This document shows positions 11,447-28,222 of a DNA stretch of 64,000 nucleotides, in pieces. Under the pieces are notes generated by a model. That model worked only from the letters and a program-made list of their open reading frames with translations. It had not been told where the DNA came from and did no database searches. Made by a program: the position numbers and the translations under genes. This DNA comes from an uncultured virus (IMG/VR IMGVR_UViG_3300034418_005550) (taxonomy: Duplodnaviria; Heunggongvirae; Uroviricota; Caudoviricetes), in the IMG/VR virus record IMGVR_UViG_3300034418_005550; one strand, written 5' to 3'. Within the stretch, counting starts at the first letter, position 1. Each line of letters starts with the position of its first letter.

Positions 11447-11458
11447 AACCTTTGCTCC

Positions 11459-12274
11459 TTAAATTAAATCTGAACTCTCATCTAACAATCTGCTAGTTTC
11501 CCTAAACAAATCATTGATTTCAAGTTCATTATCTATTACTTCGTTCCTATCACTCGCCACCCTTAACATAGTGTCTAAGTCTTGGTGCATATCTTCTAAT
11601 GCGTCTTTTAGTTTTTCGATTGCGTCCGCTGACGAATCTGATAGGTTTTTATCTTTGCTTAAGCGTAAAGAAGTCAGCTCTTTACATCTTCCCAGAAGTG
11701 AAGTCATCTTGATAAGCAAGTTATCCACTTCTTCTACAAAACTCATTCCGCTTTTTTTTGAATCTTCTTTGACTTCTTCGTCCAGATCCTTTTGCGTTTG
11801 TTCTTTAATTCCTACTGTGTGTGTATTTTGATTAGCACCTACAAGAACTGGGCTTACTTCCCACACTTTGACATCTTTTAAAAATCTTACTTCTTGTTCC
11901 TCGCCATTACTTTTTGTAAACATTCCTTTTTCAGAATCATGAACTTCAAAACCGAATGACCATTGTTGTAAATCATCCATAGCTTTTACAGTTTCGTAAG
12001 CCTCACGCCCTGCCTCTGTATTCATATTGAACTTGCCTTCAAAGGTAGCTTTGTCATTATCTTGAACAATTTTTCCTTTACCTATAATGTGTTTCCAATC
12101 GTGTCCCCACACCATTACTACACCTTTGTCGCCATACCCACTTCTTATGGATCTAGGTAACACGACATCGTTGTCTGAATCTACTTCATTAAATACAGAA
12201 AAAACTGCTTTGACTTGTCCTGTTTCTTCGTTGAATGATAATAAGTCTTTACCTTTGTATTCTTTTTTGTCCAA
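11459..12274 (-). CDS. Prohead protease (HK97/S78 family)
   Basis: WGHD, WSFGF, WEVSPVLVGAN motifs. Confidence 0.93.
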   Translation of the reverse strand: MDKKEYKGKDLLSFNEETGQVKAVFSVFNEVDSDNDVVLPRSIRSGYGDKGVVMVWGHDWKHIIGKGKIVQDNDKATFEGKFNMNTEAGREAYETVKAMDDLQQWSFGFEVHDSEKGMFTKSNGEEQEVRFLKDVKVWEVSPVLVGANQNTHTVGIKEQTQKDLDEEVKEDSKKSGMSFVEEVDNLLIKMTSLLGRCKELTSLRLSKDKNLSDSSADAIEKLKDALEDMHQDLDTMLRVASDRNEVIDNELEINDLFRETSRLLDESSDLI

Positions 12275-12279
12275 TTTCT

Positions 12280-13908
12280 TTAAATCCTTTTTTCGTTATA
12301 GTTTAAAAAACATCTACAATTTACAGTTAGATCTGGTGTTGCTCCCAAAGAGCTATCACCTGGATATGCTAACTTCATACCATCATAGTCAAATAATTTC
12401 TGCTCGTCTATCTCTGTTCCGTCTAAGATAACATGAGCGTCACGAACTTTGCCGTCCCTTTGACTAATCCATTCTTTAGTGTAGAGCAAACCGCTAGACT
12501 TTGCACCAACTAAACGCCCATAATTTGCAATCTTATTTGTTTCAGTTCTCGCTATTGTTAAAGCTCTTGTAAGATTTTTTTGACTAAGAACTTTACGCAC
12601 TTTATCAGCGACAAAGTTTTGCAATCTACTGCCTGTATAGTTTAGCTCAAAAGCCTCATCAACTGCACTTAAAAAACTATTTTTAAATCTTGTCTTAGAA
12701 GTTTTGGCCATATTTGGTATCATCTCTTCAATAAGTCCTGCTAAATATTCTGCTGCCTCTTTATTTTGTCTGAGGTTTGTTAATGGAAATTTACTTGGAT
12801 CGATGAGCCTTATAAAAAAACCTTGTGTCAATAATTCTTCTTCACTTCTTTTTTGTTCTATTCTTACTGTTGTTATTTCTTTAGTTAGATCTGGGAGCAT
12901 TAAATCAATTTGATAATATGCAAAGTCATTAGCTATTGCAATGTAATAATCATAAAGAGAAGATTTCCAAGTGTCCATGTTTGTATCAATAGCTTGATTA
13001 ACGATAGCCTCAAGTCCTAACTCATTGGGCATGTATCTATTTAGTAATTGAAATATTTTCATATCTTGTGTTTGCAATAAATCAAAATATAATTCTTTAA
13101 CAGCTTGTTCCCAATTACCTACAAATCTGTCGTGTTCTTTCCAGAGTATATCTTTTACACTTTCACTTCTAAATTTATTTGTTCTGTAATCCCATTCTTC
13201 TTGTCTTAATATATTTTTTCTGCGGACTAACTCAGCTGCACTGTCTGCTTTTTCATCTCTCTTATTCATAGCCCTAACAAGTTTTTGGCTCCAAGTTTTT
13301 CCTGCCTCACCGCCCCACAAAGCCCAAGCGATTCTGCCGTTGCTTGGATAGCCTTTTTCTCCAGGTCGCCAACCCTCAGCCTTTTTATCTACTTCATGTC
13401 TAGGAAAATATTTTGCAATATGTCTAGTTTTTTCTGAACCTGCAACAGTATTATTTAAAATATATCTAGCCGAATTTAAACCTACATCAGTTCCGCCACG
13501 CCCAAATTCTTTTCGCCAATCTAAACCCCGCTTGGCTTCTTCTTTAGCACCTTTTGGAATTGTAAAATCTAAATCATCATATAAACTTTTAAAACTTTTT
13601 TTGCTTGATAATGGATGAGCTCTTGGAAGTAAATCCAAATCAAATCGTCCAGATCTAAACCTCAAATTTCTAAGAGCATACAAGAAGGCATTAACACGAG
13701 CATAAGCCCATTGGTCTTCACTATTTACACTTGGTCTTACTGAACTTGGATTAGTTCTGTATGCACCTACACCCCTACGAAAAACTGCACCGAGCATTCC
13801 AAGAGTTGCTCTTTTTCTTGGATCATCGCCCCACTTCTCGTTGTGCTCATCTACTTTTTTTTGTAATGCAGCTTTTACTCTATCTGTAAGTTGCTTACTC
13901 TCTATCAT
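12280..13908 (-). CDS. MuF-like minor head protein with N-terminal accessory domains
   Basis: IARTE, KEW....D..VR..H, PGD...NCRC motifs. Confidence 0.88.
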   Translation of the reverse strand: MIESKQLTDRVKAALQKKVDEHNEKWGDDPRKRATLGMLGAVFRRGVGAYRTNPSSVRPSVNSEDQWAYARVNAFLYALRNLRFRSGRFDLDLLPRAHPLSSKKSFKSLYDDLDFTIPKGAKEEAKRGLDWRKEFGRGGTDVGLNSARYILNNTVAGSEKTRHIAKYFPRHEVDKKAEGWRPGEKGYPSNGRIAWALWGGEAGKTWSQKLVRAMNKRDEKADSAAELVRRKNILRQEEWDYRTNKFRSESVKDILWKEHDRFVGNWEQAVKELYFDLLQTQDMKIFQLLNRYMPNELGLEAIVNQAIDTNMDTWKSSLYDYYIAIANDFAYYQIDLMLPDLTKEITTVRIEQKRSEEELLTQGFFIRLIDPSKFPLTNLRQNKEAAEYLAGLIEEMIPNMAKTSKTRFKNSFLSAVDEAFELNYTGSRLQNFVADKVRKVLSQKNLTRALTIARTETNKIANYGRLVGAKSSGLLYTKEWISQRDGKVRDAHVILDGTEIDEQKLFDYDGMKLAYPGDSSLGATPDLTVNCRCFLNYNEKRI

Positions 13909-15568
13909 CTTTTATGCGTTCTTCATATTCTTCGTGAGTTGAACAAGGCATATAAATGAGGTTGCCGTCTTTATCGTGAGTATGAGTTCCGCTACAACCT
14001 AATTCTTCAGCTCGTTCTCTTGCCTCTTCTTGCGTAGTGAATTCGTCTTGACCTACCATAGCCTTTGGCTCATCAGCAAATCTCTCTATTTGTCTAAGTC
14101 TTGCCTCAGCTAATTCTCTACTAGGATAACAACCCATATTCTTTCCAGACTCTTCAGCTATTACGCAAAACTCTCCATCAATTTCTCTTACTACTTTTAA
14201 ATTAACTACAATATTATTTAAGATTTTTTCATCATCTTCTATTTCTATCTCTTCAACTTCTTCAACTTCTTTTGGTTCTTCTTTAGGCATTGGCTCTTCA
14301 ATAGATAAATTTGCAGGTGTAACTAATTTGTTAGCGTCTAAATAATATACATCTTGTTTATCGTTTGTAGGTAAGCCTACTTGTTCTCTGGCCTCAGCTA
14401 CAGTAATCCAACCACCCTGCACACCTATATTAAGCCTATTGAAAAGCTCGTCCATATCTTGTTGTAAAGCTCTTACATTTGAATAATCATAGTAAGCAGT
14501 TATCTCTTCTGTTTCTTCATAATCTTTTAATAAAAGTTGTTGTGTTAATTCTTCCCCTACTTGTTTCCATAAAGGAATTAATTTATTTTCTGTAAAAAAT
14601 TCTCTAAGAGTTTCAGCATTGGAATATGTTGCTCGTTCAAGTCCAGATCCTAAACCTGCAAGAATTGCAGGAACACCCAAGACAGCTGATATTCTCTCTT
14701 CTGGTACACGCCTTAAAGTTCCTATGTCTAATTCAGTAGGGCTAAAAGCCATTTTTTCAACTTTCATAGCACCTGTAACTACAAGCGGTTTCCCTTTATT
14801 TTTTCCTGCAGTTTTTTGTTGATAAGTTCTTGCTATTTGTTCTGCCTCTTCTGGTGTAGGTGAGTATTCAGTTCTAGGTGTTATTAATACACTAGGAACA
14901 CCGCTATTTGCAAGAAGAGCTGTAGCCAATTGCCCTGCAGATTCATCGCCATAAATTTCTCTTAATACTGACCTTAAAGGTGCAAAACCTTTTTTATGAT
15001 TATTTGGATCTAAGCCTAAACGAATGTGAACAATATCTTCTGGCCTAATTATAAATTTTTGATTATTGGTTTCATATTCATAGAATGTTATTAAATCTTC
15101 TTTAGTTCCCTGCGGTTTTACTTCTTCAGGCATTAAAGGATATAAAGCAACAACCTGTCCTGCGTTATTCTTTTGTTTAAGCAAGTAAGCGTCCCCAGAT
15201 ACATGCATAGCATTTATAATATATTGCTGTATAATGTCGCCACTCATGTATGGATTTGGTCGGCGCATAAGTTTAGTTAGTGGATGATTAAGAACATCTT
15301 GCTCATATCCCTCACTATCATATTTCTTAACACTAAGTTGAGCCTCACTAAAAGATGTTCCTAGAACTTGTAAACAAGCAACTACTGCGGAATTACTTGC
15401 ACCATTTCCCATTGTGCTTATATCCCAAGCACCAGATCTGTTGTTATAACCTTGAATAAAATTTAAGTTGTTATAAAGTGAATCTTCATCTCTAAAAGTG
15501 TTCAATCTTTTTTCTTCTGTATTATCTCTGTTAAAAATTATATCTGTAAATCTTTTTCTTTCAGCCAT
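13895..15568 (-). CDS. Portal protein (HK97 family) with C-terminal accessory modules
   Basis: RPNPYMS, GDAY, I..VLGVP, TYSNAE, T..EAR motifs. Confidence 0.95.
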   Translation of the reverse strand: MAERKRFTDIIFNRDNTEEKRLNTFRDEDSLYNNLNFIQGYNNRSGAWDISTMGNGASNSAVVACLQVLGTSFSEAQLSVKKYDSEGYEQDVLNHPLTKLMRRPNPYMSGDIIQQYIINAMHVSGDAYLLKQKNNAGQVVALYPLMPEEVKPQGTKEDLITFYEYETNNQKFIIRPEDIVHIRLGLDPNNHKKGFAPLRSVLREIYGDESAGQLATALLANSGVPSVLITPRTEYSPTPEEAEQIARTYQQKTAGKNKGKPLVVTGAMKVEKMAFSPTELDIGTLRRVPEERISAVLGVPAILAGLGSGLERATYSNAETLREFFTENKLIPLWKQVGEELTQQLLLKDYEETEEITAYYDYSNVRALQQDMDELFNRLNIGVQGGWITVAEAREQVGLPTNDKQDVYYLDANKLVTPANLSIEEPMPKEEPKEVEEVEEIEIEDDEKILNNIVVNLKVVREIDGEFCVIAEESGKNMGCYPSRELAEARLRQIERFADEPKAMVGQDEFTTQEEARERAEELGCSGTHTHDKDGNLIYMPCSTHEEYEERIKDDRE

Positions 15569-15587
15569 TCCTTTTCCATTCTTCCTA

Positions 15588-15639
15588 GCTTGACAGCTGA
15601 ATTAGACGCACCCAATAAATTGGAATCCAGCTCCCAAGC
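15588..15639 (-). promoter_or_regulatory. Candidate structured RNA element between terL and portal
   Basis: Long stem enclosing a mini-hairpin followed by TGCGT; same architecture at 49207-49262. Confidence 0.5.
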
Positions 15640-15642
15640 AAC

Positions 15643-16893
15643 TCAATAAGCTGTAAACTTCTTTTGGTTTTGAATTAACAAAACCGCATAAGCTAATGCA
15701 TCAACTTGGTCATCATGCTCACCCACAGGGAATGTCAATAACTCTCGCTGTAAATCAGCATACCATAAACTTTGCTCATTGAACCACACTTTACCAGATT
15801 CCATACGAGCAGCAAGAGGCAAAGCCCTTGACACCTTATCTCTGTCAGCCCTTAGTTCTTTAACAGGTAAGCCCTCACGCCTAGCTATTTGCACCATTGA
15901 TAGTTGAAAACCTGTTTTCTCTATATAAAAAGCCTCAGGCATTTCTCTATCATTTATGTCTTTCATTATAGGGATAATGTCGGGGGCTTCAACTCTTCGC
16001 CTCAATAAATCTAAAATAATAAAATTGTTATTAGGTGTTACTGCAACAGTTGCTATAACAGTAAAGTCAGCAGTTGTCTTAGTGCTCGCAGCTAAATCAA
16101 CAGTGCAGTATTTCCTACACTCACTTAATTGCACTTCTTCATTATCTAATATGTAATATTGATTAATAGTTTCGTTTCCAGTTTCGTCATATTCTTTGCG
16201 TTCTTCGGTTTCGTAGAATCTAGCCCATTGACTTTTAAATATTGATCCAAACTCTGTAAATTCTGCTAAATATTCTTGACTAAAAACTAATGAACCTAAT
16301 TCTTCTTTAGCCCCCTCAATTTCTTCTTTTGGTATGTAAGGATTATCAAAAGTTGTAAATCTGAAAACTGACCAATTATCTAAACTATCAGCTCTCATTG
16401 TTAGCTCATGAAACCAAGTGCCCATTCCATTTGGTGTAGAAATAAATATGGCCTGCCCTTGTCTATCAGTAAGAGTCGGTCTTATAACTTCCCAAACATC
16501 TTTTTTCATGAAAGCTACTTCATCAAGTATTACTAAGTCAAGCCCTGCACCTCTCAATCGATCTGGATTATCGCCAGACTTACATTGAATAAATCCACCA
16601 CCATTAAACTCTATACGCTTTTCAACTTCTCTAATATGAGTATTAGGGATTTGGTTAGCAAAATGTTTAAACTCTCTGTAAGAATCTTGCGTCATATTGT
16701 AAGTAGGTGCTATAAACCATACCCTACCGCCATTAATAGCAGTTTTAATTGCGTATAATATTGATAGCCTAGTCTTACCAAATCTTCTTCCTGCGACAAT
16801 GACTTTAAATCTATTTGGATCTTTTATAACTTTTATTTGATTTTTATGTAATTTTGGAAGTTCTATTAAATCGGTTTCGTAAGTTTCGGCCAT
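15643..16893 (-). CDS. terL: Terminase large subunit
   Basis: AGRRFGKT Walker A, VILDE Walker B, ISTP, HDDQVDA nuclease motif. Confidence 0.96.
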   Translation of the reverse strand: MAETYETDLIELPKLHKNQIKVIKDPNRFKVIVAGRRFGKTRLSILYAIKTAINGGRVWFIAPTYNMTQDSYREFKHFANQIPNTHIREVEKRIEFNGGGFIQCKSGDNPDRLRGAGLDLVILDEVAFMKKDVWEVIRPTLTDRQGQAIFISTPNGMGTWFHELTMRADSLDNWSVFRFTTFDNPYIPKEEIEGAKEELGSLVFSQEYLAEFTEFGSIFKSQWARFYETEERKEYDETGNETINQYYILDNEEVQLSECRKYCTVDLAASTKTTADFTVIATVAVTPNNNFIILDLLRRRVEAPDIIPIMKDINDREMPEAFYIEKTGFQLSMVQIARREGLPVKELRADRDKVSRALPLAARMESGKVWFNEQSLWYADLQRELLTFPVGEHDDQVDALAYAVLLIQNQKKFTAY

Positions 16894-17396
16894 TATTCAT
16901 CTACATCTTCCTCAATATCATCTGACCATTTGACTTTTATTTTTCTTAATCCACCTGCTTGTATTCCTAAAGTTGATTCTGGTTCTCCATGTAAAGTTCT
17001 TTCACCTCTTATACCTGAATCTAATAAAGCCAATGCCTCTTTTGCGTCTAATTGTTCTGGTCTTATATTTCTAATTTTTTCAAAACCTTTTGTTTGCTTT
17101 ACTACTTCAAATGTTAAGTGGCGTTCTCTCATTTGTTTTAGTTTTTCTTTATTCTCGATCTGGTAAATTCTGTCTTGTTCTATATCAAATTCTTCACAGC
17201 GTTTTACCCAATTATATTTAGATGACCACCTTTTTAATTGAGCTAAAATTGTATTTTCTTTGCGTCCAGTTTCTTCGGCATACATCTTGGCTACTTTGGG
17301 CAGACTTCTTGTATATCCTAAATCACGATAAAGTCCAAAAGCATTGAAAGCTTTTTGCGTTTCGTTCTTTAACCTATCCCAACTATTCTCATTCAT
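16893..17396 (-). CDS. terS: Terminase small subunit (putative)
   Basis: Directly upstream of terL; ET.KAF.AF..Y, RWS.KYNW..R motifs. Confidence 0.7.
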   Translation of the reverse strand: MNENSWDRLKNETQKAFNAFGLYRDLGYTRSLPKVAKMYAEETGRKENTILAQLKRWSSKYNWVKRCEEFDIEQDRIYQIENKEKLKQMRERHLTFEVVKQTKGFEKIRNIRPEQLDAKEALALLDSGIRGERTLHGEPESTLGIQAGGLRKIKVKWSDDIEEDVDE

Positions 17397-17398
17397 AA

Positions 17399-17959
17399 TT
17401 AATCCCAACTAGGTGAGAAATCATTGTTCTCTTTAAATTTTTTAATATGTTCAACATTCTTCCCTGCTCCGCCACTCTCTGCTAGTTCTTTAATAAGTTC
17501 AATAGAGCCTGCCTCATATAATCTTCTTATCTCTTCATCTTCCATTCCTAACAACTTATTTAACTTGTCATTGTCTAGCTTATGGTCATCTTTTAATTTT
17601 TGCATTATTACAGCCATTGGTCTTACGCCATGCTGACCCCTAGCTCTGTTATGTCTAATAGTAGCCATTATTTGTTCATCTTCCCCAATTTCTTTTAAAA
17701 CTACTACAGGAACAAGTCCGCCTGTTAATTCTTTAATTTCTTTATGACCCGAAACTGTCCACCTGTGGAATCCATCAACAATTTCTTTTGATTCTCTTAT
17801 CACTATTGGTTGTGTCCAACCACTATTTAAAATTGATTCTTTTAACAGCTTTAACTCTGGCGGAGCAACTTTGTTTGGATTGTATGTATTTGAGAACAGC
17901 TCTTCTCTATCAATCCATTGAACATCGCTAATTGGTTGATTCTTGTAATTCTTTGTCAT
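17399..17959 (-). CDS. ParB/Srx-domain protein, IbrB/YbdM-like
   Basis: NTYNPNKVAPPELKLL, GWTQPIV, IVDGFHR, ATIRHNRARGQH; start set at MTKNY. Confidence 0.88.
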   Translation of the reverse strand: MTKNYKNQPISDVQWIDREELFSNTYNPNKVAPPELKLLKESILNSGWTQPIVIRESKEIVDGFHRWTVSGHKEIKELTGGLVPVVVLKEIGEDEQIMATIRHNRARGQHGVRPMAVIMQKLKDDHKLDNDKLNKLLGMEDEEIRRLYEAGSIELIKELAESGGAGKNVEHIKKFKENNDFSPSWD

Positions 17960-19133
17960 ACCTTGCCTTCCTTTTATTCCATTCTTCCAGATCCCTATGT
18001 TTTGTAATTGCTTTAGGCATTCTTCTGCCCTTAGTATTTCCACGAATAGCTACTTTTAAAATCATATCCCAGTTTAAACCTGTATCTGGATGTATAGCTT
18101 TATGCAATATTGGATCACTTGTTTTGCTATAATGCGCATTCATCCACCTTTGAATGTTTGTTATAATTTCTAATTGCATTTGTGGTTTATGCTTTTGAAC
18201 TTGCGTTAAAATAAATTCTTCCCATTCCATTTCTGCAGGTTTTTCGATTGTCTTATTAAATCCATAAAGTTCTGTAGTTGAGTATCTAGCTGCAGTTCTT
18301 GCACCATCAACTCTATCCACCATTTTTTCCCAAACATCTGGATAACATAAAGGAAAACGCCACAACTTTTGCATAGGCTCTTCGCCAAAAGGTGGTGCTA
18401 TTCTTTGAGCTGAGGGGGATATTCCCGCCATTTGTTCTAGTTCGTAGCATTCGTTAGTGTCCCAACCATACTTTATTGGAGCCGTCCAAATATCTGCAGT
18501 TGTCCAATCATAAATAGGCAATACCTTTCCACCACTTGCGCCCTTATCTTGAAAAGGAATTATGTAATTGAATTCTCGCATTTCTGCCGCCCTGCTTGAA
18601 ACTTGTAAAAATCTTGATAAAGATTCGTCAGCTCTTATTCCCATTACTCGCCCCACAGTTCCATATTTTTTTGTCGGTCTTGATAAAGCGTCAAGATCTG
18701 GAATCATTAACCTGCTATTTGGATCGTCAGAATTATAGCCCTCAATCTTAGATATTCCCTCAACTGGTTTTGGTCTTACCCACAAATCTTTTTCTTCTTC
18801 TGCCCATGGAAACCAATAAGGTTGTTTAGTTGAGCAAGCGTTCCTATGTTTAATTGGAACAGTGAACCAATCCATATCAATTTCTTCTAAGTTATAAACA
18901 CGCCTTACATAATGTTCAGTTTCATAAGGGATAGCTTCTTCGTCCCAAAAATAAACATTTAAAGGTAATTTATTTAAGTGTTTTGCAACTTCTAATGTAA
19001 TGTTTAATACAGCTGTAGAGTCTTTTCCACCGCTAAAGCCTACCGAGATTGTATCAAATAATTTGAATGCTTGTTCAACTCTCTCTAAAGCTCTTGTATA
19101 AACATCAACTGTAGTATATAATTTTTTGCCCAT
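17928..19133 (-). CDS. PP-loop/PAPS-reductase family protein, IbrA/YbdN (DUF3440)-like
   Basis: VGFSGGKDS PP-loop, DEEA, GIRADESLSR, PIYDWTTADIW. Confidence 0.9.
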   Translation of the reverse strand: MGKKLYTTVDVYTRALERVEQAFKLFDTISVGFSGGKDSTAVLNITLEVAKHLNKLPLNVYFWDEEAIPYETEHYVRRVYNLEEIDMDWFTVPIKHRNACSTKQPYWFPWAEEEKDLWVRPKPVEGISKIEGYNSDDPNSRLMIPDLDALSRPTKKYGTVGRVMGIRADESLSRFLQVSSRAAEMREFNYIIPFQDKGASGGKVLPIYDWTTADIWTAPIKYGWDTNECYELEQMAGISPSAQRIAPPFGEEPMQKLWRFPLCYPDVWEKMVDRVDGARTAARYSTTELYGFNKTIEKPAEMEWEEFILTQVQKHKPQMQLEIITNIQRWMNAHYSKTSDPILHKAIHPDTGLNWDMILKVAIRGNTKGRRMPKAITKHRDLEEWNKRKARYDKELQESTN

Positions 19134-20529
19134 TATCACTACTTAGATATGTAATCAAACCTGGAAGAAAACAAGTAATACATGTTCCTATCCACATCAA
19201 ACTAGAACTTACATCAGTAAATCTTCCGAGCATATAAACAGGCAAGCCGATAGCAAGCCCTGCAAGTATTCCCCAAAACATTCCTTTTTCACTTGGCTTA
19301 ACATTTTTATTTTCAAGTCCAATGATTGTTAATAATGTTGGTATAAGTGTTCCTGCTCTTAAAGTTCCATAAAATAAAAACAAATAAACTATTTCCATAT
19401 TAGGAATATTTGCAACTAATAAGCCAAAAACTACCAAAACTATCATGCCTTTTTTTGCATTACTTACTACTTCGCCCTCATTAGTTGTCAAGTCTTCACC
19501 TACTAGAGAAGATATTGAACACAAACAAGAATCTAATGTAGAGATTAGCCCAGATAAAAGAGCAATTAAAAATGGTATAGCTGTCCATTGAGGTAAAGTA
19601 GCTAATACTATTTCAACATTTACAAGTTGGTTAGAGTCTGGAACAAATCCAGATCCTGCCGCTACAAAACCAAAAACTGACATAAGAATTGGAACAACAC
19701 CAAATATAGCTGCACCTTTTAAGAATGCTGTTTTTACTTGGTTTTGTTCTGTAGCATATGCTCGTTGCCAAAAAGATTGGTCACCGAATGAGCCAGATAA
19801 TAAACCGATTGTTACTGAAATTCCAAAACTAAAAAAAATACTACCGCCTACACCACTAAACATATTTGTAGCCTCACCTGCAAATCCATTTAGTCCAGAT
19901 CTAAAAGTATCAAAGCCAACAACACTTAGAATCCATGGAACAAGAACAAAAGCAACACCGCCTATTATGGCCATTTGCAAATAATCTGTTCTTACTGACG
20001 CACCTAAACCTGCATTATAAGAATAAGCAACGGCAATTAAAGCCATTGCAAAAGTAATAGCTGTGAAATTAATTCCAGTTAAAGATTGCACTACAGCTCC
20101 ACCTGCTAATAACTGCACGGCAAAAGAACATATTGAAAGAGCTGATAATGATACTATATAAATTTTTTGAACTCTTTTTGAATGCATTTTTTCCATTGTG
20201 CTTGACAATGTAAATGCTTTTTTGTATTTATTTCTAACCTTTTGTCCTAAATAAGCAAATAAAACTAATGTCAATATATTGGGAACAGTAAAATAAAATA
20301 CACCTATCCAACCATTGTTATAAGCCTGCTGACTTGCAACAAAAAGTGCAGGTGCCCAAATCCAAGTCGCAGCGATTGAAAAACCTGCCTCAGTTGAGTT
20401 AAGTTTTCTGTTAGCTACTAAATAAGATTCTTTTGTATTAGCTTTAATTTTATAAGTTGTAGCAATTCCTATTGCTAAGGCTGCATATAAAGCTATAAAA
20501 ATCCAACCTTGTAATTGACTAAATATCAT
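19105..20529 (-). CDS. Sodium:solute symporter (SSS) family transporter
   Basis: Many TM helices; YLVANR, SIAATWIWA, GL.ASV.TD..Q, DQSFWQRAYA, STLDS motifs. Confidence 0.9.
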   Translation of the reverse strand: MIFSQLQGWIFIALYAALAIGIATTYKIKANTKESYLVANRKLNSTEAGFSIAATWIWAPALFVASQQAYNNGWIGVFYFTVPNILTLVLFAYLGQKVRNKYKKAFTLSSTMEKMHSKRVQKIYIVSLSALSICSFAVQLLAGGAVVQSLTGINFTAITFAMALIAVAYSYNAGLGASVRTDYLQMAIIGGVAFVLVPWILSVVGFDTFRSGLNGFAGEATNMFSGVGGSIFFSFGISVTIGLLSGSFGDQSFWQRAYATEQNQVKTAFLKGAAIFGVVPILMSVFGFVAAGSGFVPDSNQLVNVEIVLATLPQWTAIPFLIALLSGLISTLDSCLCSISSLVGEDLTTNEGEVVSNAKKGMIVLVVFGLLVANIPNMEIVYLFLFYGTLRAGTLIPTLLTIIGLENKNVKPSEKGMFWGILAGLAIGLPVYMLGRFTDVSSSLMWIGTCITCFLPGLITYLSSDNGQKIIYYS

Positions 20530-21184
20530 TTTGTTCTTTCCAATCTACGCATAGATCCACTAAAGCATTGACACTGTTTCCAGTTGAATAAATATCTTTA
20601 GCTTTATTAATTGCGTCCATAATTTTTTCCCTTTGTTCTTTTGTGACAGCGTAGTTCAACTTATAATAAGTTTCACCTGTTTCACTTTGCCCCAAGAATT
20701 CAGGTTGCTCCGTATTTAAAGTGCTGATGTAATCTGCAAAAACTGATTTAGAATCTAATTTCAATGTTTCGTTTTTAACAATTCTTTCCAGATCGTCTAA
20801 GTCATCAAGATTAAAACCTGTTCCAACTAAACTTTTTTCAGTTTTAGTGAGTTCAGTTAATTGCTCAACCAATGCAGGATAATCATAATCAGCTAAATCA
20901 TTTGCTCGATTATCTATCAAAACAATTCTCTTGGCTGTGTCTTCATCTACATCAACATAAGTTACAGCAATTTTATCCCACTTTAAATGTAGTGCAGCTT
21001 GATAGGTATGATTACCTGCAAGAATTTGCATAGTTCTTTTGTTTACAACTATAGGGCGATATTGCCCATTCTCTTCAAGTGATGTTACAATCGCCCCTAC
21101 ATCGCCCTGCCTTGTATTGTCGGGATATTCAGTAAGCTCTTTAACATCAACGAGCATATTTTTTAAATTGGGTGCTATATTCAT
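20519..21184 (-). CDS. ParB N-terminal domain protein
   Basis: YPDNTRQGDVGAI, ILAGNHT, IVLIDNR; N-domain homologous to 55035-56210. Confidence 0.85.
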   Translation of the reverse strand: MNIAPNLKNMLVDVKELTEYPDNTRQGDVGAIVTSLEENGQYRPIVVNKRTMQILAGNHTYQAALHLKWDKIAVTYVDVDEDTAKRIVLIDNRANDLADYDYPALVEQLTELTKTEKSLVGTGFNLDDLDDLERIVKNETLKLDSKSVFADYISTLNTEQPEFLGQSETGETYYKLNYAVTKEQREKIMDAINKAKDIYSTGNSVNALVDLCVDWKEQNDI

Positions 21185-21201
21185 ATGCTCAAATTATACA
21201 T

Positions 21202-21239
21202 AAAAAAACCGCAAATCAAATCAATTTGCGGTTTTTTTT
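21202..21239. terminator. Bidirectional intrinsic terminator
   Basis: A-run ACCGCAAAT...ATTTGCGGT T-run. Confidence 0.8.
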
Positions 21240-21245
21240 AATTAA

Positions 21246-21707
21246 TTAAGCTATTTTATGGTCAAAAAACAATCCACTTAAACCAATTAGCTCTTTTTCT
21301 GCAAAGTCTGTCCAATGTCCTGTTTCTGTTTTATCAGCACCATTTTGAGAACCATTTTCATAATCTCTCTTTTGAACGAAAAGTGCATAACCATTGTTAT
21401 GTCTTAATGATAATGTGTAATGATACTCAGTATCAGAATGACTTTTGAATTCTTCACCTTTTGCCCAAAAATCACTATGGATTTTTCCAAAAGCGTTAAG
21501 TTCAAATCCAAAAACCTTTTCATCCGCATTAGTAAAAGTAACAAAGTCTTTTAAAAACCCTTTAGAATTGTTAAAGCCCCTTGCATATAATACAAATTCC
21601 ATTAATGCTTGACCTAATCCACCTTTGACATATCCATCATGGTGCTTATAAATTGAAACACTTCCTTCACTTAATGTTTCAATATTTATTGTTGCTCTTG
21701 TACTCAT
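21246..21707 (-). CDS. Hypothetical phage protein (early, own promoter)
   Basis: MSTRA..I...IY.H.DGY N-terminus; upstream TATAAT and AAGGGG RBS. Confidence 0.75.
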   Translation of the reverse strand: MSTRATINIETLSEGSVSIYKHHDGYVKGGLGQALMEFVLYARGFNNSKGFLKDFVTFTNADEKVFGFELNAFGKIHSDFWAKGEEFKSHSDTEYHYTLSLRHNNGYALFVQKRDYENGSQNGADKTETGHWTDFAEKELIGLSGLFFDHKIA

Positions 21708-21843
21708 TTTTAGATTCCCCTTTCAATATTTTCTCGAATCATAAACTCATTATATAATATATAAATTATATATACAAGCAAAAAAACCTTTTTTTTATTG
21801 ATTTTTTATTAGGCTAGATAGTGAGTTGTCTGATTACAAAGCT

Positions 21844-21866
21844 CTTAAATCGGCTCAAAATGGCCT
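21844..21866 (+). repeat. 23-bp inverted repeat, copy 1
   Basis: CTTAAATCGGCTCAAAATGGCCT; exact reverse complement at 29463-29485. Confidence 0.85.
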
Positions 21867-21868
21867 GT

Positions 21869-22357
21869 TTATTCGTCTAAATCTTCATTCCATGTGGTTA
21901 TAAGAGCTGTAACTATATTTACTATCTCATCAAGTTCTGCAATCACTAAACCATTTGAAGTGCCGTCTGGCATTGCAACAAACATAAATGGTCGGCTGTC
22001 CCCTATTCTTTTATTGCTATCTGATTGTTCTTTTGCTTGATTGTATTTTGTCCAGATCGTCTTAACTTGCGCACCTGCTTTAACTTCTACACGAATATTT
22101 CCGCCCCAGTTTTCTTCATGTCCCATTCTGGATCTAAACTTAGCGTCTGGAATCATTAATTTTTTTCTTGCAAGGTTTTGTTTTCTTCTGCCTTTGTTTT
22201 TATTTTTTAAACCACGCTTTTGGTTTTCTGTCCAGTTGTCTTTTTTCTTTACAGTTTTTTGTCCCATACCTTGCAAACCGCGTTCATCGTGCTTGCGTCT
22301 TTTCCAATCTGAATAAGTTTCATCTTCTCTTATATCAAATTCTTTTTTTGTAGCCAT
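21869..22357 (-). CDS. Conserved phage protein, possible PD-(D/E)XK resolvase-like nuclease
   Basis: RVEVKAG motif; close homolog 51043-51516. Confidence 0.5.
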   Translation of the reverse strand: MATKKEFDIREDETYSDWKRRKHDERGLQGMGQKTVKKKDNWTENQKRGLKNKNKGRRKQNLARKKLMIPDAKFRSRMGHEENWGGNIRVEVKAGAQVKTIWTKYNQAKEQSDSNKRIGDSRPFMFVAMPDGTSNGLVIAELDEIVNIVTALITTWNEDLDE

Positions 22358-22512
22358 TTCCATACCATTCTGTTTAGTAGATGATTTTTAATCCAAGCCC
22401 CGCATACCATACATTCTAATGTAATCCAATTCATATGACCTACAACAAAAGTGTTATAACAATCCCAACAAATTATGTAGGTGTTTTCAAAATATATTTC
22501 TTGTTCTTCCAT
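22330..22512 (-). CDS. Small Zn-ribbon protein
   Basis: CWDC...CMVC. Confidence 0.5.
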   Translation of the reverse strand: MEEQEIYFENTYIICWDCYNTFVVGHMNWITLECMVCGAWIKNHLLNRMVWKWLQKKNLI

Positions 22513-22584
22513 AAATTCAGTTTAATGCAAGTAAGTGGCGGTTGGGCTGCAATCCGCCACTTATTGCGCTACTGCGTCAAGTAG

Positions 22585-23034
22585 CTACCCTGTTGGTTTT
22601 TGCTCTATTGGTTTAGGCTTGTCTGAATCTACTTGAGCTTGTAAAACTTTTTCTAACCAATATGGATTGTCGCCTGTCCATAGGTGTAAGCCTAGCCCTA
22701 GATTTCTTGCACATCTTTTAAAAGCGTCTGACTCTGCTTTTTTGAGTAAGTCGCCATTGTTATCTTTTGTATTGATTGTATTTGCACTTCCAGATCCTTG
22801 AACTGCATATGTTTGGTCATCAACAACTACTTGTAATTCCCCAATACAACCACTTACTTGTCCATTAGGTTCATAAATTATTTCCTTAATTGACCAATCA
22901 TAATTCCCGCAGACTTCCAAAAGTCTTTGAGCAATAGTTCCAAAGGGCACATAATCTTCTTCCCCATGTGCTTTTTTGATTTGCTTGATAAAGTCTTTTG
23001 GAAAAACTTTAGCAAGTGCTAATTTTTGTTTCAC
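22585..23034 (-). CDS. Rad52/Sak-like single-strand annealing protein
   Basis: LKKAESDAFKRCARNLGLGLHLW. Confidence 0.8.
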   Translation of the reverse strand: MKQKLALAKVFPKDFIKQIKKAHGEEDYVPFGTIAQRLLEVCGNYDWSIKEIIYEPNGQVSGCIGELQVVVDDQTYAVQGSGSANTINTKDNNGDLLKKAESDAFKRCARNLGLGLHLWTGDNPYWLEKVLQAQVDSDKPKPIEQKPTG

Positions 23035-23152
23035 TTTTTCCCCTTTTTCTTTTTCTTTAATTCATTAAAAGATTCTTTGACATCTTCTATTGAATTTATA
23101 TCAACTATATTTTTTTCTACAGTATTGCCGTCAATGTCCATAAATGTAATTT

Positions 23153-23356
23153 TCATATTCCAACCTTTCCTATAATTGCAACTTCACCTGCAGTGTGTTC
23201 TATCATTTTTGAATTTAAGACAATCATTTTCTTTTGTAAGCTATCCATTTTATGTAAAGCCTCCAATGCCTCAACCATTCTTTTATTTACTTCTTCCAAT
23301 TTCTCAACAGATTTTTCCAGATCGTTGATTTTTTGTAAGAGTTCTTCTTTATTCAT
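23153..23356 (-). CDS. Hypothetical coiled-coil protein
   Basis: Coupled ORF in early operon. Confidence 0.55.
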   Translation of the reverse strand: MNKEELLQKINDLEKSVEKLEEVNKRMVEALEALHKMDSLQKKMIVLNSKMIEHTAGEVAIIGKVGI

Positions 23357-23537
23357 TGTTCTCTCTTCCATTCAACCATTCGGCAATAGTATCTTTTGCC
23401 CACAATGGATTACCACTAACAACAGCGTCTTCTTCTGGAAGTTTCCCGTCACTTCTATATTGTCTGACAGTTTGTTCTTTTAATCCAGTTGCCATTGCTA
23501 TTTCTTGAATACCAAATATGTTTTCCCAATTAATCAT
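23349..23537 (-). CDS. Small HTH DNA-binding protein (AlpA/excisionase-like)
   Basis: GIQEIA..TG...TVRQY...GKLP...G.PLW; homolog 57600-57791. Confidence 0.75.
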   Translation of the reverse strand: MINWENIFGIQEIAMATGLKEQTVRQYRSDGKLPEEDAVVSGNPLWAKDTIAEWLNGRENNE

Positions 23538-23733
23538 TTTTAATCTCGAACATATTATCAGTTGTTATTTCTTCACCTTTATTCAATCGATCCATAAAAT
23601 CAACATTTGGTTTTTGTTCATATTCAAAACCAAACATTTTTGCTAGTTTTACTGCTACTTCACCGAGAAGAGCACCAATAGCAATTATTGAAATAAAAGC
23701 AAAAGCAATATAAATAACGCTTACATCATTCAT
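23530..23733 (-). CDS. Hypothetical membrane protein
   Basis: N-terminal hydrophobic helix. Confidence 0.55.
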   Translation of the reverse strand: MNDVSVIYIAFAFISIIAIGALLGEVAVKLAKMFGFEYEQKPNVDFMDRLNKGEEITTDNMFEIKND

Positions 23734-23923
23734 AGTTGTTCCCTTTCCAAATTACTTATACTTGTGCTTCAATATGTGAAACGCATAAATCACAATGAGG
23801 ATAACTTGCACTGCCTAATTCAATAGGCGGTTCATTATCTTGCATTAATTCTTTACACATGTCACATCTGTAAATAAATAATTCTTTCATAATATATACA
23901 TTATATAAGATACATGCGATATA

Positions 23924-24679
23924 TTAAGCATATATTTTTTGTTCTTCTTGACAGTAATAACAAACATGTAATTGATATTTAGCATGTTCATAACCGCTAT
24001 CACGGAATTTATGGCCATCTGTTTTACAGTCCCAGATCTTTTCAGTTTTTGCTTTTTCTTCTACTCTTCTTAATATTTGACCAAAGTTGCTTGCAATAGC
24101 AGTAGGTGTTATATCAATATCTTTCCAGTTAGTCTTATACCAATCTGATACAGCTCTAACTTCTTCTGTAGTTGCGTTCACTTCTCTTAATTGTTTAGTA
24201 GCTTTTTGTAATCTTCCTAGCTCATTCTTTGGAGCTCTGTTCCAATCTATCCCACAACAATTTGCAATCTCTTCAAATAATAAATCTCTTCTTCTTTTGG
24301 TTTTCTTAATATGGTTTTCTTTGAGCGACTCTGCAGGGGCTACCCTAGTGTCGTCTGTGTCGCTACCCCTAGCGACTGACATGTCCCTACCCTCAAAACG
24401 ATTAAGAAAATATTGATTTACTTTATTACTGCCGTCAGCTTTTTTCTCTCTAAATACTTTTATTGCTTTTATAGTTTCCAGATCCTTAATTGCTCTATCA
24501 ACAGACTTAACAGAACAGCCTGCTCTTTTTGCAATAGTGGATCGTGAGGGATAACACTTCCCCTCACTATCAGCAAAACCACAAAGAACTGAATATATTA
24601 CTTTGCTTTTATCAGATATTTCAGATTCTAAAACCCACCGAGCGACTATGTTAAATTTAACATCAGTTTCAAAATGCAT
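23924..24679 (-). CDS. Replication initiator with N-terminal HTH
   Basis: ISDKSKVIY..L, CYPSRSTIAK..GCS..SVDRAIK.L, NQY; internal repeats; homolog 56207-56959. Confidence 0.8.
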   Translation of the reverse strand: MHFETDVKFNIVARWVLESEISDKSKVIYSVLCGFADSEGKCYPSRSTIAKRAGCSVKSVDRAIKDLETIKAIKVFREKKADGSNKVNQYFLNRFEGRDMSVARGSDTDDTRVAPAESLKENHIKKTKRRRDLLFEEIANCCGIDWNRAPKNELGRLQKATKQLREVNATTEEVRAVSDWYKTNWKDIDITPTAIASNFGQILRRVEEKAKTEKIWDCKTDGHKFRDSGYEHAKYQLHVCYYCQEEQKIYA

Positions 24680-24847
24680 ACAACCCCTTTCATCATCTTT
24701 TAAAACATTCAGAACAAATTGAAAGCCCTAAAAACTCGCCTTTGGTTTTTTGATAGTGCCGTTCTGAACCACCATAAATCATACTTGCACAGCTGTAACA
24801 AGAATGAAACTCAACACAAATACAAGTTGTAAATTCTTCACCTTTAT

Positions 24848-25126
24848 TCATAAATTCAATTTTAGTTCTTCACCAGGTTTAGCAATTAATTGATAATACG
24901 CACCATCACCTTTTTGATTATCAACAACATCAATAATATAACCACGCTTACGCAATTTATGAACTGAACTTGATAACCTGCTTATGTAAAGTTCATATAC
25001 AATTTCTTTTGTTGATAGTGGTTTTTCTTTTTTGAATCTCTCTAAAGCCCAAATTAATTTATCTTCATGAGTCTTTAAAGAGCTAGGCAAAATGCATTCC
25101 CTAAAGCTGTAAGGTATAAACGCCAT
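24848..25126 (-). CDS. Winged-helix DNA-binding protein
   Basis: ISRLSSSVHKLRKRGYII. Confidence 0.6.
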   Translation of the reverse strand: MAFIPYSFRECILPSSLKTHEDKLIWALERFKKEKPLSTKEIVYELYISRLSSSVHKLRKRGYIIDVVDNQKGDGAYYQLIAKPGEELKLNL

Positions 25127-25175
25127 TATTCCTCCTCAGCTTGTCCTTGTAAAAAATAAAAATAATCTTCTTCCA

Positions 25176-25487
25176 TTATTCTTCCCCCAATTCACTTTTC
25201 CAACACTTGTTACATAACATAAAGTCATCAGACTCTAACGGAAAAAAACCAATTTTACTACAAAAAGCACACATAAACCAACGAGGTTCAGCGGTGTCAT
25301 TTCTTGTAAGTAAATTAGTAAAGTATTTTTGTAGTGATTCTTTATCTACTTTTACTTCAATTTTATTTCCATTAAGATCTGGTAATTGAATTATCAATTT
25401 GTTCTCCAATCTTTTTTTATAATTATAACAAAACAATAAAACTGAATGGGCTATAATGAAAACATCTTTATTCATTACATCGTGCAA
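25176..25487 (-). CDS. Hypothetical Zn-finger protein (start uncertain)
   Basis: CAFC...CNKC at C-terminus. Confidence 0.45.
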   Translation of the reverse strand: MHDVMNKDVFIIAHSVLLFCYNYKKRLENKLIIQLPDLNGNKIEVKVDKESLQKYFTNLLTRNDTAEPRWFMCAFCSKIGFFPLESDDFMLCNKCWKSELGEE

Positions 25488-25517
25488 ACGAGTGGTCAGA
25501 ATCTAATTAGTTGTTCT

Positions 25518-26162
25518 CTAATCTTCTGACCATTGTTCGGCCATAGCTTGAGCAACACCTTTAAAAAATACACTTCGCAATTTACTGCGTTCTTCACTAG
25601 GCGGCAAGTTCCATTTACTTGAACGGATATGTTTTGGAAGTTTCATTATTTCTTCTGTTCGGTCATTTGTTTTTTCTAATTTTGGTAAATTTTTTAACCA
25701 TAAAAAAGTTCTTTTTGATTCTAAGTCGCCAAACTCATAAGGTTGAATTATTTGGTCTGCCTCTTTTATATAAGTTGTAATTAATGAGTTAGGATTTTCA
25801 ACGCAAATTTTTGGAATAGGTGCGTCCATTAAGAGCTTTACAAAAGCTAAAGCCTCAAACATTTTTTTTCTACGATCTGGGTAATTTGGGTGTTCTCTTC
25901 TCAAATCTCTTTGTAAGTGCATATCTCTTGGATCATAAAGTGCCCAACTTCCGCTAATAGCAAGATAAGTGCAAGGTGGATGAGCTATCATCAAATCCCA
26001 ACCATCATATAAAATGTCTTTTACATCACCTACATAATGTGTAGCAAGTCCGCCAAAATCACTTTCAGTTTCAAGTAAATCACAACTTACAGCGTCATGA
26101 CCAAGTTTTAAAAATTCATCTCTAACGATTCCTGAATATTCACATGCAACTAAAACTCTCAT
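25518..26162 (-). CDS. Phage C5-cytosine DNA methyltransferase-like protein
   Basis: VLVACEYSG motif I variant, DLMIAHPPC motif IV, VENP motif VI, G.A.AMAEQW end. Confidence 0.75.
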   Translation of the reverse strand: MRVLVACEYSGIVRDEFLKLGHDAVSCDLLETESDFGGLATHYVGDVKDILYDGWDLMIAHPPCTYLAISGSWALYDPRDMHLQRDLRREHPNYPDRRKKMFEALAFVKLLMDAPIPKICVENPNSLITTYIKEADQIIQPYEFGDLESKRTFLWLKNLPKLEKTNDRTEEIMKLPKHIRSSKWNLPPSEERSKLRSVFFKGVAQAMAEQWSED

Positions 26163-26707
26163 TCTTCAGCTTTCCATAACTCATTCCAATTATTATTGTT
26201 CCAACATTCCTTACTAGGTGTCCATGGTTTCCAATAATTATTTCTTGAATGAATATCTTGAACTAAAATTTTACTAATTAAAAAATTGTAGTAAGGAACA
26301 AATTGCACTTTATTTAGTCTATAGAGATTTGGATAATTTGAAATCAATATTCTTCTTAAACTTAATGGAATGTTTTCAACTGGAATATTATTGTAAGTTA
26401 AAACATAAGAATTAAATTTAGGCAAGTCATATTCTGTTGCTACCCAATTCCAAGTGCTAGGTATAACTTGAAATAAACCACTATCATTATTTCCTTTGTT
26501 AAGTGCAAAAGTTTTTCCCCTAGATTCGCACCACGAAACTTTTACAGCTCTCTCTATATTATGAGTTTCAAAATGCTCAACATAATCTTTTGAATATTGA
26601 ATAACATTTGTTGGTAAATAATTATTACATTCTTTTACTTTTAAAATGTCATCTTCTTTTAATGGATCTTGAAGACTAGCAAAGAATAAAATACATTCAA
26701 CAATCAT
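26159..26707 (-). CDS. Lytic transglycosylase (SLT-like)
   Basis: WCES catalytic Glu, DSGLFQV..STW. Confidence 0.8.
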   Translation of the reverse strand: MIVECILFFASLQDPLKEDDILKVKECNNYLPTNVIQYSKDYVEHFETHNIERAVKVSWCESRGKTFALNKGNNDSGLFQVIPSTWNWVATEYDLPKFNSYVLTYNNIPVENIPLSLRRILISNYPNLYRLNKVQFVPYYNFLISKILVQDIHSRNNYWKPWTPSKECWNNNNWNELWKAEE

Positions 26708-26839
26708 ATAAGAAAAGGCTGACTAGGTTTGTTACACGACAGGGGAATCATATATGAAGAACTAATCAGCCTTAAACTTGTTTTAATCATAATGATTATT
26801 TTACATTATAAAAGTGATAAAACCATGTAGAATTGAATA

Positions 26840-27493
26840 ATGGTAAATGCCATAGATTTTAAAAATAGTTTTGTTGCCTTTTCTGGAGGCAAAGATAGTG
26901 TGGCTGTATCAAAATATGTAAGAGAAGAATTAGGTTTATCATTACCTCATGTCGCAGTAATAAATCATGAACTAGATTATGAAGAACATATTGATTATAT
27001 AAGAGATTATTGCGATGATAATAAAATAGAATTGCACTTCCAGATCCTTAAAAATCGTGGCCTAGATTATGTAATACATAATCCAAAATATATATTCCCT
27101 TTTGATTCAAAAGTAAAAGGTGATTGGTTTAGAAAATTTCAACAATATGGAATTAAAAAATTTGCAAAAGACAATAATTATTCAACAATAATTTATGGCC
27201 GAAGAATAGCAGACGGCAATAATATTAAATCAGAATATTATAAAACAGCTGATAATCTTTTTCATTATTTTCCTTTAAGGATCTGGAGCAACGAGCATAC
27301 AAATTATTACATATCAAAGGAAGAGCTGTCGCCTATATATGAAACAGAATTAGGTAAAAGGCGTGGAACACACACTATCAATATTGCTAATGAATATAAT
27401 GGAACAGATGAAATTGGGCTTGAATTAGTAAAATCAATTAGTCCAGATAAAGCAAAAATTGTTGAAGAGCTTTTAAAAATTAAATATAAATAA
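26840..27493 (+). CDS. PP-loop/PAPS-reductase family protein
   Basis: VAFSGGKDS, IYGRRIAD, PLRIWS. Confidence 0.8.
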   Translation: MVNAIDFKNSFVAFSGGKDSVAVSKYVREELGLSLPHVAVINHELDYEEHIDYIRDYCDDNKIELHFQILKNRGLDYVIHNPKYIFPFDSKVKGDWFRKFQQYGIKKFAKDNNYSTIIYGRRIADGNNIKSEYYKTADNLFHYFPLRIWSNEHTNYYISKEELSPIYETELGKRRGTHTINIANEYNGTDEIGLELVKSISPDKAKIVEELLKIKYK

Positions 27494-27544
27494 TTACACT
27501 TTTTTATATATATTCTATATAATGGATTGTATGAAAGGGGAATT

Positions 27545-27742
27545 ATGAAAGTAATTACAGCAGTAGAAATTGATTGCATTAATCCAAATTGTAATGATGA
27601 TTGTTGCTATGAAGACAAACAACATTTTAATTTAGTTTATGTAATTAATAATGAAGTAGAAGAATATAACTGTGACAATTGTGGAGCAGTTTTACCTATT
27701 GACAAAGAGTTAATAGAACAATTAAAAAGGGGGCATGAATAA
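27545..27742 (+). CDS. Small Cys-rich hypothetical protein
   Basis: GGGGG RBS, upstream TATAAT; CINPNC...CDNC. Confidence 0.6.
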   Translation: MKVITAVEIDCINPNCNDDCCYEDKQHFNLVYVINNEVEEYNCDNCGAVLPIDKELIEQLKRGHE

Positions 27743-28002
27743 TGTTAGCTATAAACTCAACTTTTAATGAAGTTGAAATGGATGTAAAAGCAGGAATAAA
27801 AGTTAATGCTGTAGCAGCATTAAATTATGTTCTTGAATTGGAAGGTGAAATATGTTCGTTAGACAGAACATTTACTTCTAATTTAAGGCATTGTGTTTAT
27901 ATATTAAAAGAGAGAACTGCTAAAGAAATTTACAAAGAAGAATGTAAATGTGGTGGCTCGAATAGAAAACATAGTAAATATGTTTATGATTGGGCTAGTT
28001 AG
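27742..28002 (+). CDS. Hypothetical protein
   Basis: TAATG-coupled ORF followed by terminator. Confidence 0.6.
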   Translation: MLAINSTFNEVEMDVKAGIKVNAVAALNYVLELEGEICSLDRTFTSNLRHCVYILKERTAKEIYKEECKCGGSNRKHSKYVYDWAS

Positions 28003-28014
28003 TTAAATAAAATT

Positions 28015-28183: not shown

Positions 28184-28222
28184 ACTAAAAATTATACATA
28201 ATATATATAATTATGTCTATAT

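Follow-up and report, generated by a model that had tools for sequence, protein, structure and literature searches.

An importer-bearing IbrA/IbrB cassette beside the terminase genes of an uncultured phage: a candidate DNA modification system

Introduction

IbrA/IbrB pairs, in which a PP-loop enzyme is encoded next to a ParB-like protein, are a known family that occurs in Escherichia coli and in phages (PHROG 2302 and 2159) with the same two domains in the same adjacency. Here we describe a variant with its own importer, a ParB–symporter–IbrA–IbrB cassette at positions 17,399 to 21,184 of a 64,000-nucleotide stretch of DNA from an uncultured member of the Caudoviricetes (IMG/VR record IMGVR_UViG_3300034418_005550). 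This stretch, which makes up the initial 64 kb of a virus record 65.9 kb long, is called the window throughout; it holds two related small tailed-phage genomes, A (approximately 1–30,500), to which the cassette belongs, and B (from approximately 31,000). We somewhat favour the interpretation that the cassette is an importer-fed, ATP-dependent DNA modification system.

YbdN and YbdM are the E. coli K-12 paralogues of IbrA and IbrB. In E. coli, annotations and PMC4541368 assign IbrAB a role in co-activating prophage genes. The order ParB-IbrA-IbrB-terminase found in the window is also that of mycobacteriophage Phlyer and Arthrobacter phage Salgado; gp4 of Salgado, considered as a transporter candidate, proved not to be one. 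Relative to other IbrA/IbrB pairs, the window cassette adds a symporter and a second PP-loop enzyme (PP2), and nearly all members of its IbrA clade come with a supply gene. IbrA and IbrB are often counted as sulfur-metabolism genes. An initial annotation, made from the sequence alone, listed IbrA/YbdN as adenylating PP-loop enzymes related to DndC/SspD. Neither IbrA biochemistry nor a description of a symporter-IbrAB cassette was found in the literature searched, outside of which lay subscription papers and supplements.

A PAPS-reductase-type PP-loop enzyme with a ParB-like partner is likewise common to the DndC, SspD, BrxP and TdpC systems. SspD-type systems mark CCA on the backbone, GATC and GGCC are Dnd motifs (PMC12914056), and DndC needs a three-cysteine 4Fe-4S cluster (PMC10853773). 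The window cassette differs from all these in being phage-borne, in having an importer and in lacking the conserved Fe-S cysteines.

Other comparisons come from phages with modified bases. The DNA of phage Rosebush carries dPreQ0, and some phages of this kind bear a transporter of the precursor, YhhQ (PMC6884629). By annotation, ParB-TGT-QueCDE-FolE genes of Rosebush lie directly before the terminase. Such 7-deazaguanine systems, of which genome B would hold another, act by transglycosylase base exchange with GTP-derived precursors, and those enzymes are absent from the cassette of genome A. Phage thymine dioxygenases have ParB activators (PMC13229309); their chemistry, Fe/2-oxoglutarate oxidation, is unlike that proposed for the cassette, for whose first ParB protein (ParB1) an activating role can be predicted by analogy. 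ParB-fold proteins also include the small-molecule kinases SerK and SbnI, and in phages the usual fusion partner of a ParB domain is a DNA methylase (PMC12704722). A proposal linking ParB to packaging, by Iyer et al. 2013, is relayed in PMC8256090.

Organization of the cassette and its conservation

The four overlapping genes running into terS/terL that the initial annotation had described were borne out as four minus-strand open reading frames. The genes of the unit, together with PP2, are as follows:

20519..21184, minus strand: ParB1, ParB-N domain (Pfam ParB_N, NCBIfam, PHROG 723)
19105..20529, minus strand: sodium:solute symporter, SSS (Pfam SSF PF00474; phrog_20720)
17928..19133, minus strand: IbrA-like PP-loop enzyme, ATG start (PAPS_reduct and DUF3440; phrog_2302, E 1e-75)
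17399..17959, minus strand: IbrB-like ParB/Srx protein, ATG start (ParB_N; phrog_2159, E 2e-56)
16893..17396, minus strand: TerS, the next gene of the cassette unit (phrog_6299)
15643..16893, minus strand: TerL (Pfam Terminase_6N/6C)
26840..27493, plus strand: PP2, the module's second PP-loop enzyme, short and Cys-poor, outside the cassette

Consecutive cassette genes overlap by 11, 29 and 32 nt, TerS starts 2 nt past the IbrB stop, and TerS and TerL overlap by 1 nt, so that ParB1-SSS-IbrA-IbrB and terS/terL constitute one overlapping unit. PP2, which was absent from the gene list of the initial annotation, belongs to the module as its displaced fifth gene: it lies 5.6 kb away on the opposite strand, with TAGAAT 6 nt before its ATG, it occupies the same displaced position in the relative G002, and it usually sits within the cassette in other loci.

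The linkage of these genes is far beyond chance. Of the 80 viral loci recovered by means of the symporter, IbrA is present in 77, ParB in 72, IbrB in 68 and PP2 in 57 (the set is redundant, 130 symporters collapsing to 50 at 80% identity); the conserved SSS-IbrA-IbrB neighbourhood on which the initial annotation had staked its proposal thus holds. Two of the three loci without IbrA have less than 800 nt of flank, and the third, L063, has no enzyme genes between SSS and terS. Conversely, 80 loci picked by PP2 contain the symporter in 73 cases and IbrA in 77. TerL is found at most 4 kb downstream in 84 of the 88 loci with enough flank, and the terminases next to the cassette are of unrelated types. 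Among minor variations, L063 retains a symporter and a PP2 remnant (L063:3703-5091), and an insertion of roughly 3.5 kb interrupts PP2 in L115.

IbrA is present in 223 records of cultured phages, only one of which has the symporter or PP2. Because the other 222 IbrAB records are without any importer, ParB-IbrA-IbrB is the core of the system and the symporter is an accessory supply module. In phages CHPC1062 and PhiR5_2, IbrAB is distant from the terminase, which counts against a strict packaging link. The initial proposal of a packaging-linked hypermodification system importing its own substrate is therefore retained only in part: the conserved linkage, the position before unrelated terminases, the slot shared with Rosebush and Phlyer and the footprint described below speak for it, but the importer is not part of the core and IbrAB need not be close to a terminase. 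Pairs of IbrA and IbrB are abundant: beyond the cultured phages, about 6300 IMG/VR stretches match IbrA motifs (a tool estimate; 253 of 601 checked were confirmed).

A sequence footprint in genome A

Two features outside the cassette are needed here:

1..30500, no strand: genome-wide GATC/GGCC footprint of genome A (site-context count)
25518..26162, minus strand: C5-type DNA methyltransferase-like gene (phrog_757)

In genome A, restriction-type words survive only where they touch CCA. Counted on one strand or the other (CCA/TGG), all 66 GATC sites read CCAGATC (39) or GATCCA (27), against an expected 0.23 per site (p 4e-43), and all 19 GGCC sites read GGCCA (expected 0.69, p 8e-4). The commonest context, CCAGATC (39/66), places CCA entirely outside GATC. 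Control words in the same genome touch CCA rarely: AGCT at 5 of 164 sites, TGCA at 13 of 179 and CTAG at 2 of 73. Genome B has no GATC and no GGCC site. The CCA rule holds without exception in relatives of 79-86% nucleotide identity (23/23, 20/20, 22/22, 11/11 and 16/16), and a sister lineage, G002/G024, follows a relaxed CA rule (CAGATC or GATCA) at 31/31 sites where the rule was derived and at 54/54 out of sample (p 9e-9); CCAGATC is enriched in G002 (12 versus 1.2 expected), which is without the C5 methyltransferase. Such site contexts point to a DNA mark in the window's lineage, and on balance we consider the cassette to be its likelier cause, with serious caveats that are set out below.

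Partial word rules are seen elsewhere. In the cassette phages G022 (L410-L411) and G017 (L412-L413), GATC stands beside GGA/TCC at 30 of 32 sites and AGCT beside GA/TC at 138 of 145, respectively. In positions 1-9000 of Rosebush (L144), GGCC stands beside CCA/TGG at 116 of 155 sites and GATCA is enriched, a pattern that is perhaps the footprint of its 7-deazaguanine mark.

The symporter and its pocket

The initial annotation had named DUR3, PutP and choline transporters as candidate subfamilies for the symporter. It is placed between the DUR3 and CHT branches, and its best profile matches, DUR3 (E 5e-36) and bacterial CHT (E 9e-27), are the closest solved proteins; its pocket fits neither the urea nor the choline signature. 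It constitutes a family by itself, phrog_20720, which is associated with PP-loop ligases. Residues were mapped by sequence alignment only, with the roles of DUR3 and CHT pocket residues taken from PMC11840088 and PMC13220886. Pocket residues W56, W58, F80, D250, F253, W254, F276 and F384 are identical in 21 phage and 16 cellular sequences. In common with DUR3 are the WxW motif and the aspartate of transmembrane helix 6: DUR3 W93, W95, D312 and the aromatic W338 correspond to W56, W58, D250 and F276, invariant in all 37 sequences. The urea hydrogen-bond donors of DUR3, in contrast, are replaced (T98 by A61, Y117 by F80, Q124 by T/C87, N305 by L243, Y315 by F253, Y461 by F384), and DUR3 E402 becomes C/N335. 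In common with CHT are the gate, with R84, Q303 and R304 retained as R41, Q255 and R256, and the Na+ site, where A54/T55/Q185 match the sfCHT ligands and D182 and S330/T331 are retained. Of the CHT cage residues W99, W176, W298 and W445, the first and last are kept as W56 and F384, whereas W176 becomes C/L134 and W298 becomes D250. An aromatic pocket with a single aspartate would fit a small protonated amine. Polyamines are substrates of yeast Dur3, and thiamine is one of Candida Dur31 (PMC5997356); by this analogy the Dur3-type family is substrate-flexible.

A swappable supply slot

Among 270 loci with IbrA, in a sampling that favours the symporter, 180 have SSS only, 27 a bicupin only, none has both and 63 have neither. 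In 80 loci picked by IbrA the symporter occurs twice and the bicupin 24 times, again never together. The window's IbrA clade is mostly bicupin-bearing, with the symporter appearing in at least three places among the cupin carriers (FastTree phylogeny of 88 representatives with midpoint rooting, drawn with no support values). The same slot can be filled by other genes: another membrane protein in five loci, a glutaminase with an N-terminal cysteine in L156 and L256, in L233 an aldehyde dehydrogenase whose nearest family is aminobutyraldehyde dehydrogenase, a carboxynorspermidine-synthase-like enzyme in L257/L259, a short-chain dehydrogenase/reductase (SDR) at 11 metagenome loci, and a TctC/Bug binding protein in L227/L228. 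A slot-filling membrane family of 313-361 aa has a symporter-like first motif (L157:3107-4108, L173, L195, L201, L216, L293); this second membrane family, of the L157 type, gave no Pfam or NCBIfam match.

The symporter also has cellular relatives. Of 55 genome loci with the symporter, 32 hold an IbrA cassette, which TerL accompanies in 29. The remaining cellular symporters often follow an AsnB-like ligase or a protein with a PP-loop motif from the Candidate Phyla Radiation (CPR). The glutaminase domain of AsnB-like ligases needs an N-terminal cysteine, which is absent from all six of the ligases scanned. Bicupin partners in 74 loci are IbrA (28), AsnB (11) and the CPR-type PP-loop protein (6), and a bicupin adjoins a symporter in L095, L104 and L357. 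Since the same two supply genes travel with three different ATP-pyrophosphatases, this distribution suggests that the symporter and the bicupin provide a nucleophile or the precursor of one. The metal site of the bicupin is rich in His, with nearly invariant cysteines. Its best fold group, DUF861/ureidoglycine aminohydrolase (Z 18-20, 8-14% identity), is too remote for a reaction to be assigned, and a sulfonamide-synthase cupin is found only far down the fold list.

Some cellular clusters have features of their own. An operon at L089:4815-9416 (also L086, L087, L090, L091 and L133) combines a Zn-ribbon protein, an optional TPR protein, an AsnB-like ligase lacking the glutaminase cysteine and a symporter or bicupin. 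CPR clusters L093, L095, L097, L099 and L104 encode an unannotated PP-loop protein of about 365 aa. In L098/L130 the symporter is flanked on one side by a rhodanese-domain gene and on the other by a gene for a short peptide (L098:9564-9827) that resembles a modified-peptide precursor.

IbrA, PP2 and the ParB proteins

Both PAPS_reduct and DUF3440 are found in IbrA above cut-off, and in its PP-loop, SGGKDS, residues S34-D38 are invariant and S39 nearly so in 28 sequences. The protein is 27.5% identical over 98% of its length to the annotated IbrA of PhiR5_2. Its structural model (pLDDT 79) resembles most closely FAD synthase, CysD and PAPS reductases (Z 12-14, root-mean-square deviation 3.2-5.2 over 170-197 residues), with TilS and GMP synthase lower (Z 9-11.5); chains of DndC, SspD and TdpC are not in these fold lists, which says nothing on relatedness. 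The branch of FAD synthase, CysD and PAPS reductases adenylates phosphoryl or sulfuryl oxygens.

The kinship of IbrA to DndC/SspD put forward in the initial annotation stands as far as the PP-loop fold is concerned; the cluster cysteines are missing. The match to the DndC model covers just the PP-loop (E 0.002). No cysteine is invariant in the IbrA or PP2 alignments: IbrA of L006 lacks even the cysteine of HxNC, and all four part-conserved cysteine columns of PP2 are absent from the window PP2. CysH carries a C-terminal catalytic cysteine motif, and this cysteine is not present at the C-termini of IbrA or PP2. A scan of 14 proteins from the window and about 115 representatives of neighbouring genes found neither a desulfurase nor a DndD/SspC ATPase; hosts can supply IscS.

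IbrB has an intact GxxR motif, and DGFHR and HNRARG are present. In ParB1 the GxxR motif is degenerate (GNHT) and no helix-turn-helix is recognised; the protein is predicted to be an activator or adaptor. Such residues are dispensable in a ParB protein that activates a phage DNA enzyme (PMC13229309). A complex prediction for IbrA and IbrB scored 0.12 (mark 0.32) and was counted neither way.

A possible mechanism

We think it probable that the cassette modifies DNA and, provided that it does, equally probable that the importer feeds the modification. In this scheme, the Na+-coupled symporter would bring in a small compound, likely nitrogen-bearing and of amine type, which other phages likely make themselves by means of the bicupin with or without a glutaminase, an aldehyde dehydrogenase or an SDR. 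IbrA and/or PP2 would adenylate a phosphoryl oxygen, as the closest folds do, with IbrB as a nucleotide-binding partner and ParB1 as an activator. We favour the route in which a DNA phosphate at CCA is activated and AMP is displaced by the imported compound; it is nearly as likely that the compound itself is activated and then transferred to a base. The resulting post-replicative mark, at or beside CCA, would shield sites from host nucleases cutting GATC and GGCC.

A more specific and distinctly speculative version, which we consider unlikely as it stands, makes IbrA-type enzymes the sulfur-free counterparts of DndC/SspD: the backbone would be adenylated at CCA, AMP displaced by an imported or home-made amine, and a phosphoramidate (P-N) mark left behind. 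If true, this sulfur-free mark would amount to new chemistry. With phosphorothioate as the first, it would be a second class of modification of the backbone, put in place along with packaging, and the thousands of phages that are now annotated as having cysH would encode it. A phage importing the substrate for its own DNA modification through a DUR3/CHT-like symporter would also be unusual. To the known family the window contributes three things: symporter and bicupin interleaved within a single clade, cellular partners that the two have in common, and a candidate motif for the target. The phage offers a minimal five-gene set, in which the substrate of the transporter would name the chemical group, with a predicted target motif.

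Points against the proposal and alternative explanations

Several observations weigh against importer-fed modification at CCA. The CCA lineage has a C5 and the CA lineage an N6/N4 methyltransferase, so that motif and methylase change together, and one modified position cannot explain both lineages unless their hosts' nucleases differ. No such rule was found in G005, G010, G011, G013, G014, G016, G020, Phlyer, FCL-2 or CHPC1062, and a generic footprint scan of low power detected a word rule in only one of 122 dereplicated IbrA loci of at least 9 kb, the window's own, and gave no separation of loci with IbrA (1/122) from those without (1/58), both being the window's own phage. The locus set picked by SSS is dominated by gut prophages, and PP2 was not found in the complete record G011, which has SSS-IbrA-IbrB. 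The matches to amine-pathway enzymes in the supply slot (one and two loci) are far under the family cut-offs (344 versus 615 bits and 64 versus 800), and the TctC/Bug protein fits a carboxylate equally. In the CPR loci L095 and L104 the symporter and the bicupin occur together, so the two may be sequential rather than alternative.

The first of these points leads to an explanation that we hold to be possible, if rather unlikely: the cassette would modify DNA or a nucleotide without producing the CCA/CA footprint, for which lineage-specific methyltransferases would be responsible. The C5 gene is present in the window and in L421, which follow the CCA rule, and absent in G002/G024; the N6/N4 gene of G002, with its CA rule, is inserted (L399:12152-12898) where the window has none, while the window's C5 gene is missing at the syntenic place. 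Contexts GATCCA and GGCCA do put the CCA cytosine inside the site, and the rule was not found in other IbrA phages. Simple cytosine methylation, however, is not normally protective when CCA is wholly outside the site, as in CCAGATC, and to account for CCAGATC and CAGATC a second specificity would be needed in two unrelated methylases. Moreover, 38 C5-family carriers unrelated to the window (42-62% identity) follow the CCA rule at only 234 of 1321 GATC sites, absolutely in none, and with the background corrected for, no corresponding local enrichment was seen in the carriers that were inspected. A search with the G002 methyltransferase matched itself only, and the 10-28 lineage-specific changes per protein between CCA and CA lineages are too many to name a specificity residue.

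The remaining explanations change the chemistry or the target. With CCA being the Ssp motif and GATC/GGCC the Dnd motifs (PMC12914056), the mark might be phosphorothioate or another sulfur mark, made from an imported sulfur compound (such as cysteamine or taurine) with the terminase as a DndD/SspC-like motor; PAPS_reduct domains in IbrA and PP2, the metal site and cysteines of the bicupin and the rhodanese gene before SSS in CPR locus L130 agree with this. We nevertheless find it quite improbable: IbrA and PP2 have no invariant cysteine to provide the cluster that DndC needs (PMC10853773), which argues against phosphorothioation and cysH alike, the DndC match is confined to the PP-loop, and the supply slots of L156 and L256 hold glutaminases. 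It is also improbable, to a slightly lesser degree, that the target is not DNA and that an activated small molecule, assembled by the importer, a ParB/Srx kinase and an FAD-synthase-like adenylyltransferase, decorates virion or host proteins or serves as a signal or anti-defence nucleotide. The kinases SerK and SbnI, the FMN adenylyltransferases as the best folds for IbrA, the cellular SSS and bicupin relatives in small-molecule or peptide ligase clusters and the annotation of E. coli IbrAB as a prophage-gene co-activator would suit such a role, but the cassette stands before unrelated terminases, the same slot in Rosebush holds a proven DNA pathway, and DNA methylases are the usual fusion partners of ParB domains in phages (PMC12704722). 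Finally, auxiliary metabolism, that is, a urea or choline importer and cysH-type sulfate reduction feeding the host, would be in line with DUR3 and CHT as the closest solved transporters and with the filing of IbrA under auxiliary metabolic genes in PHROGs; it is largely refuted by the replacement of six urea-binding residues and loss of two choline-cage tryptophans, by the lack of a CysH-type C-terminal cysteine in IbrA and PP2, and by the occurrence of SSS alone in just one of 80 phage loci (L063).

Genome B and other features of the record

The homology of ParB1 to a ParB protein of genome B noted in the initial annotation was confirmed, at 53% identity over 115 aa, with the N-terminus of the product of 55035-56210. 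The C-terminal domain of that protein is DUF6610, with no sequence match in PDB; its earlier label 'TGT-like' appears to derive from gene context only, namely the FolE, QueE-like, QueD, QueC and QueF genes of B at 58846-61752. The gene lies about 4 kb from terS of B, not directly before it.

Upstream of the cassette, direct sequence reading gives one further feature:

21185..21243, minus strand: hairpin and T-run, then TATAAT 8 nt before the ParB1 ATG

The hairpin and T-run are likely the terminator of an upstream unit and the TATAAT likely a leaderless promoter. The relative L004 has a compensatory change in the hairpin stem; a consensus promoter scan listed neither the hairpin nor the TATAAT upstream of ParB1 and gave no excess over shuffles.

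Contigs from RNA libraries span parts of SSS and ParB1; DNA carry-over is possible, and they were not used as evidence of expression. The two phages may have been joined in the assembly of the record. The best-matching runs for the window are freshwater metagenomes.

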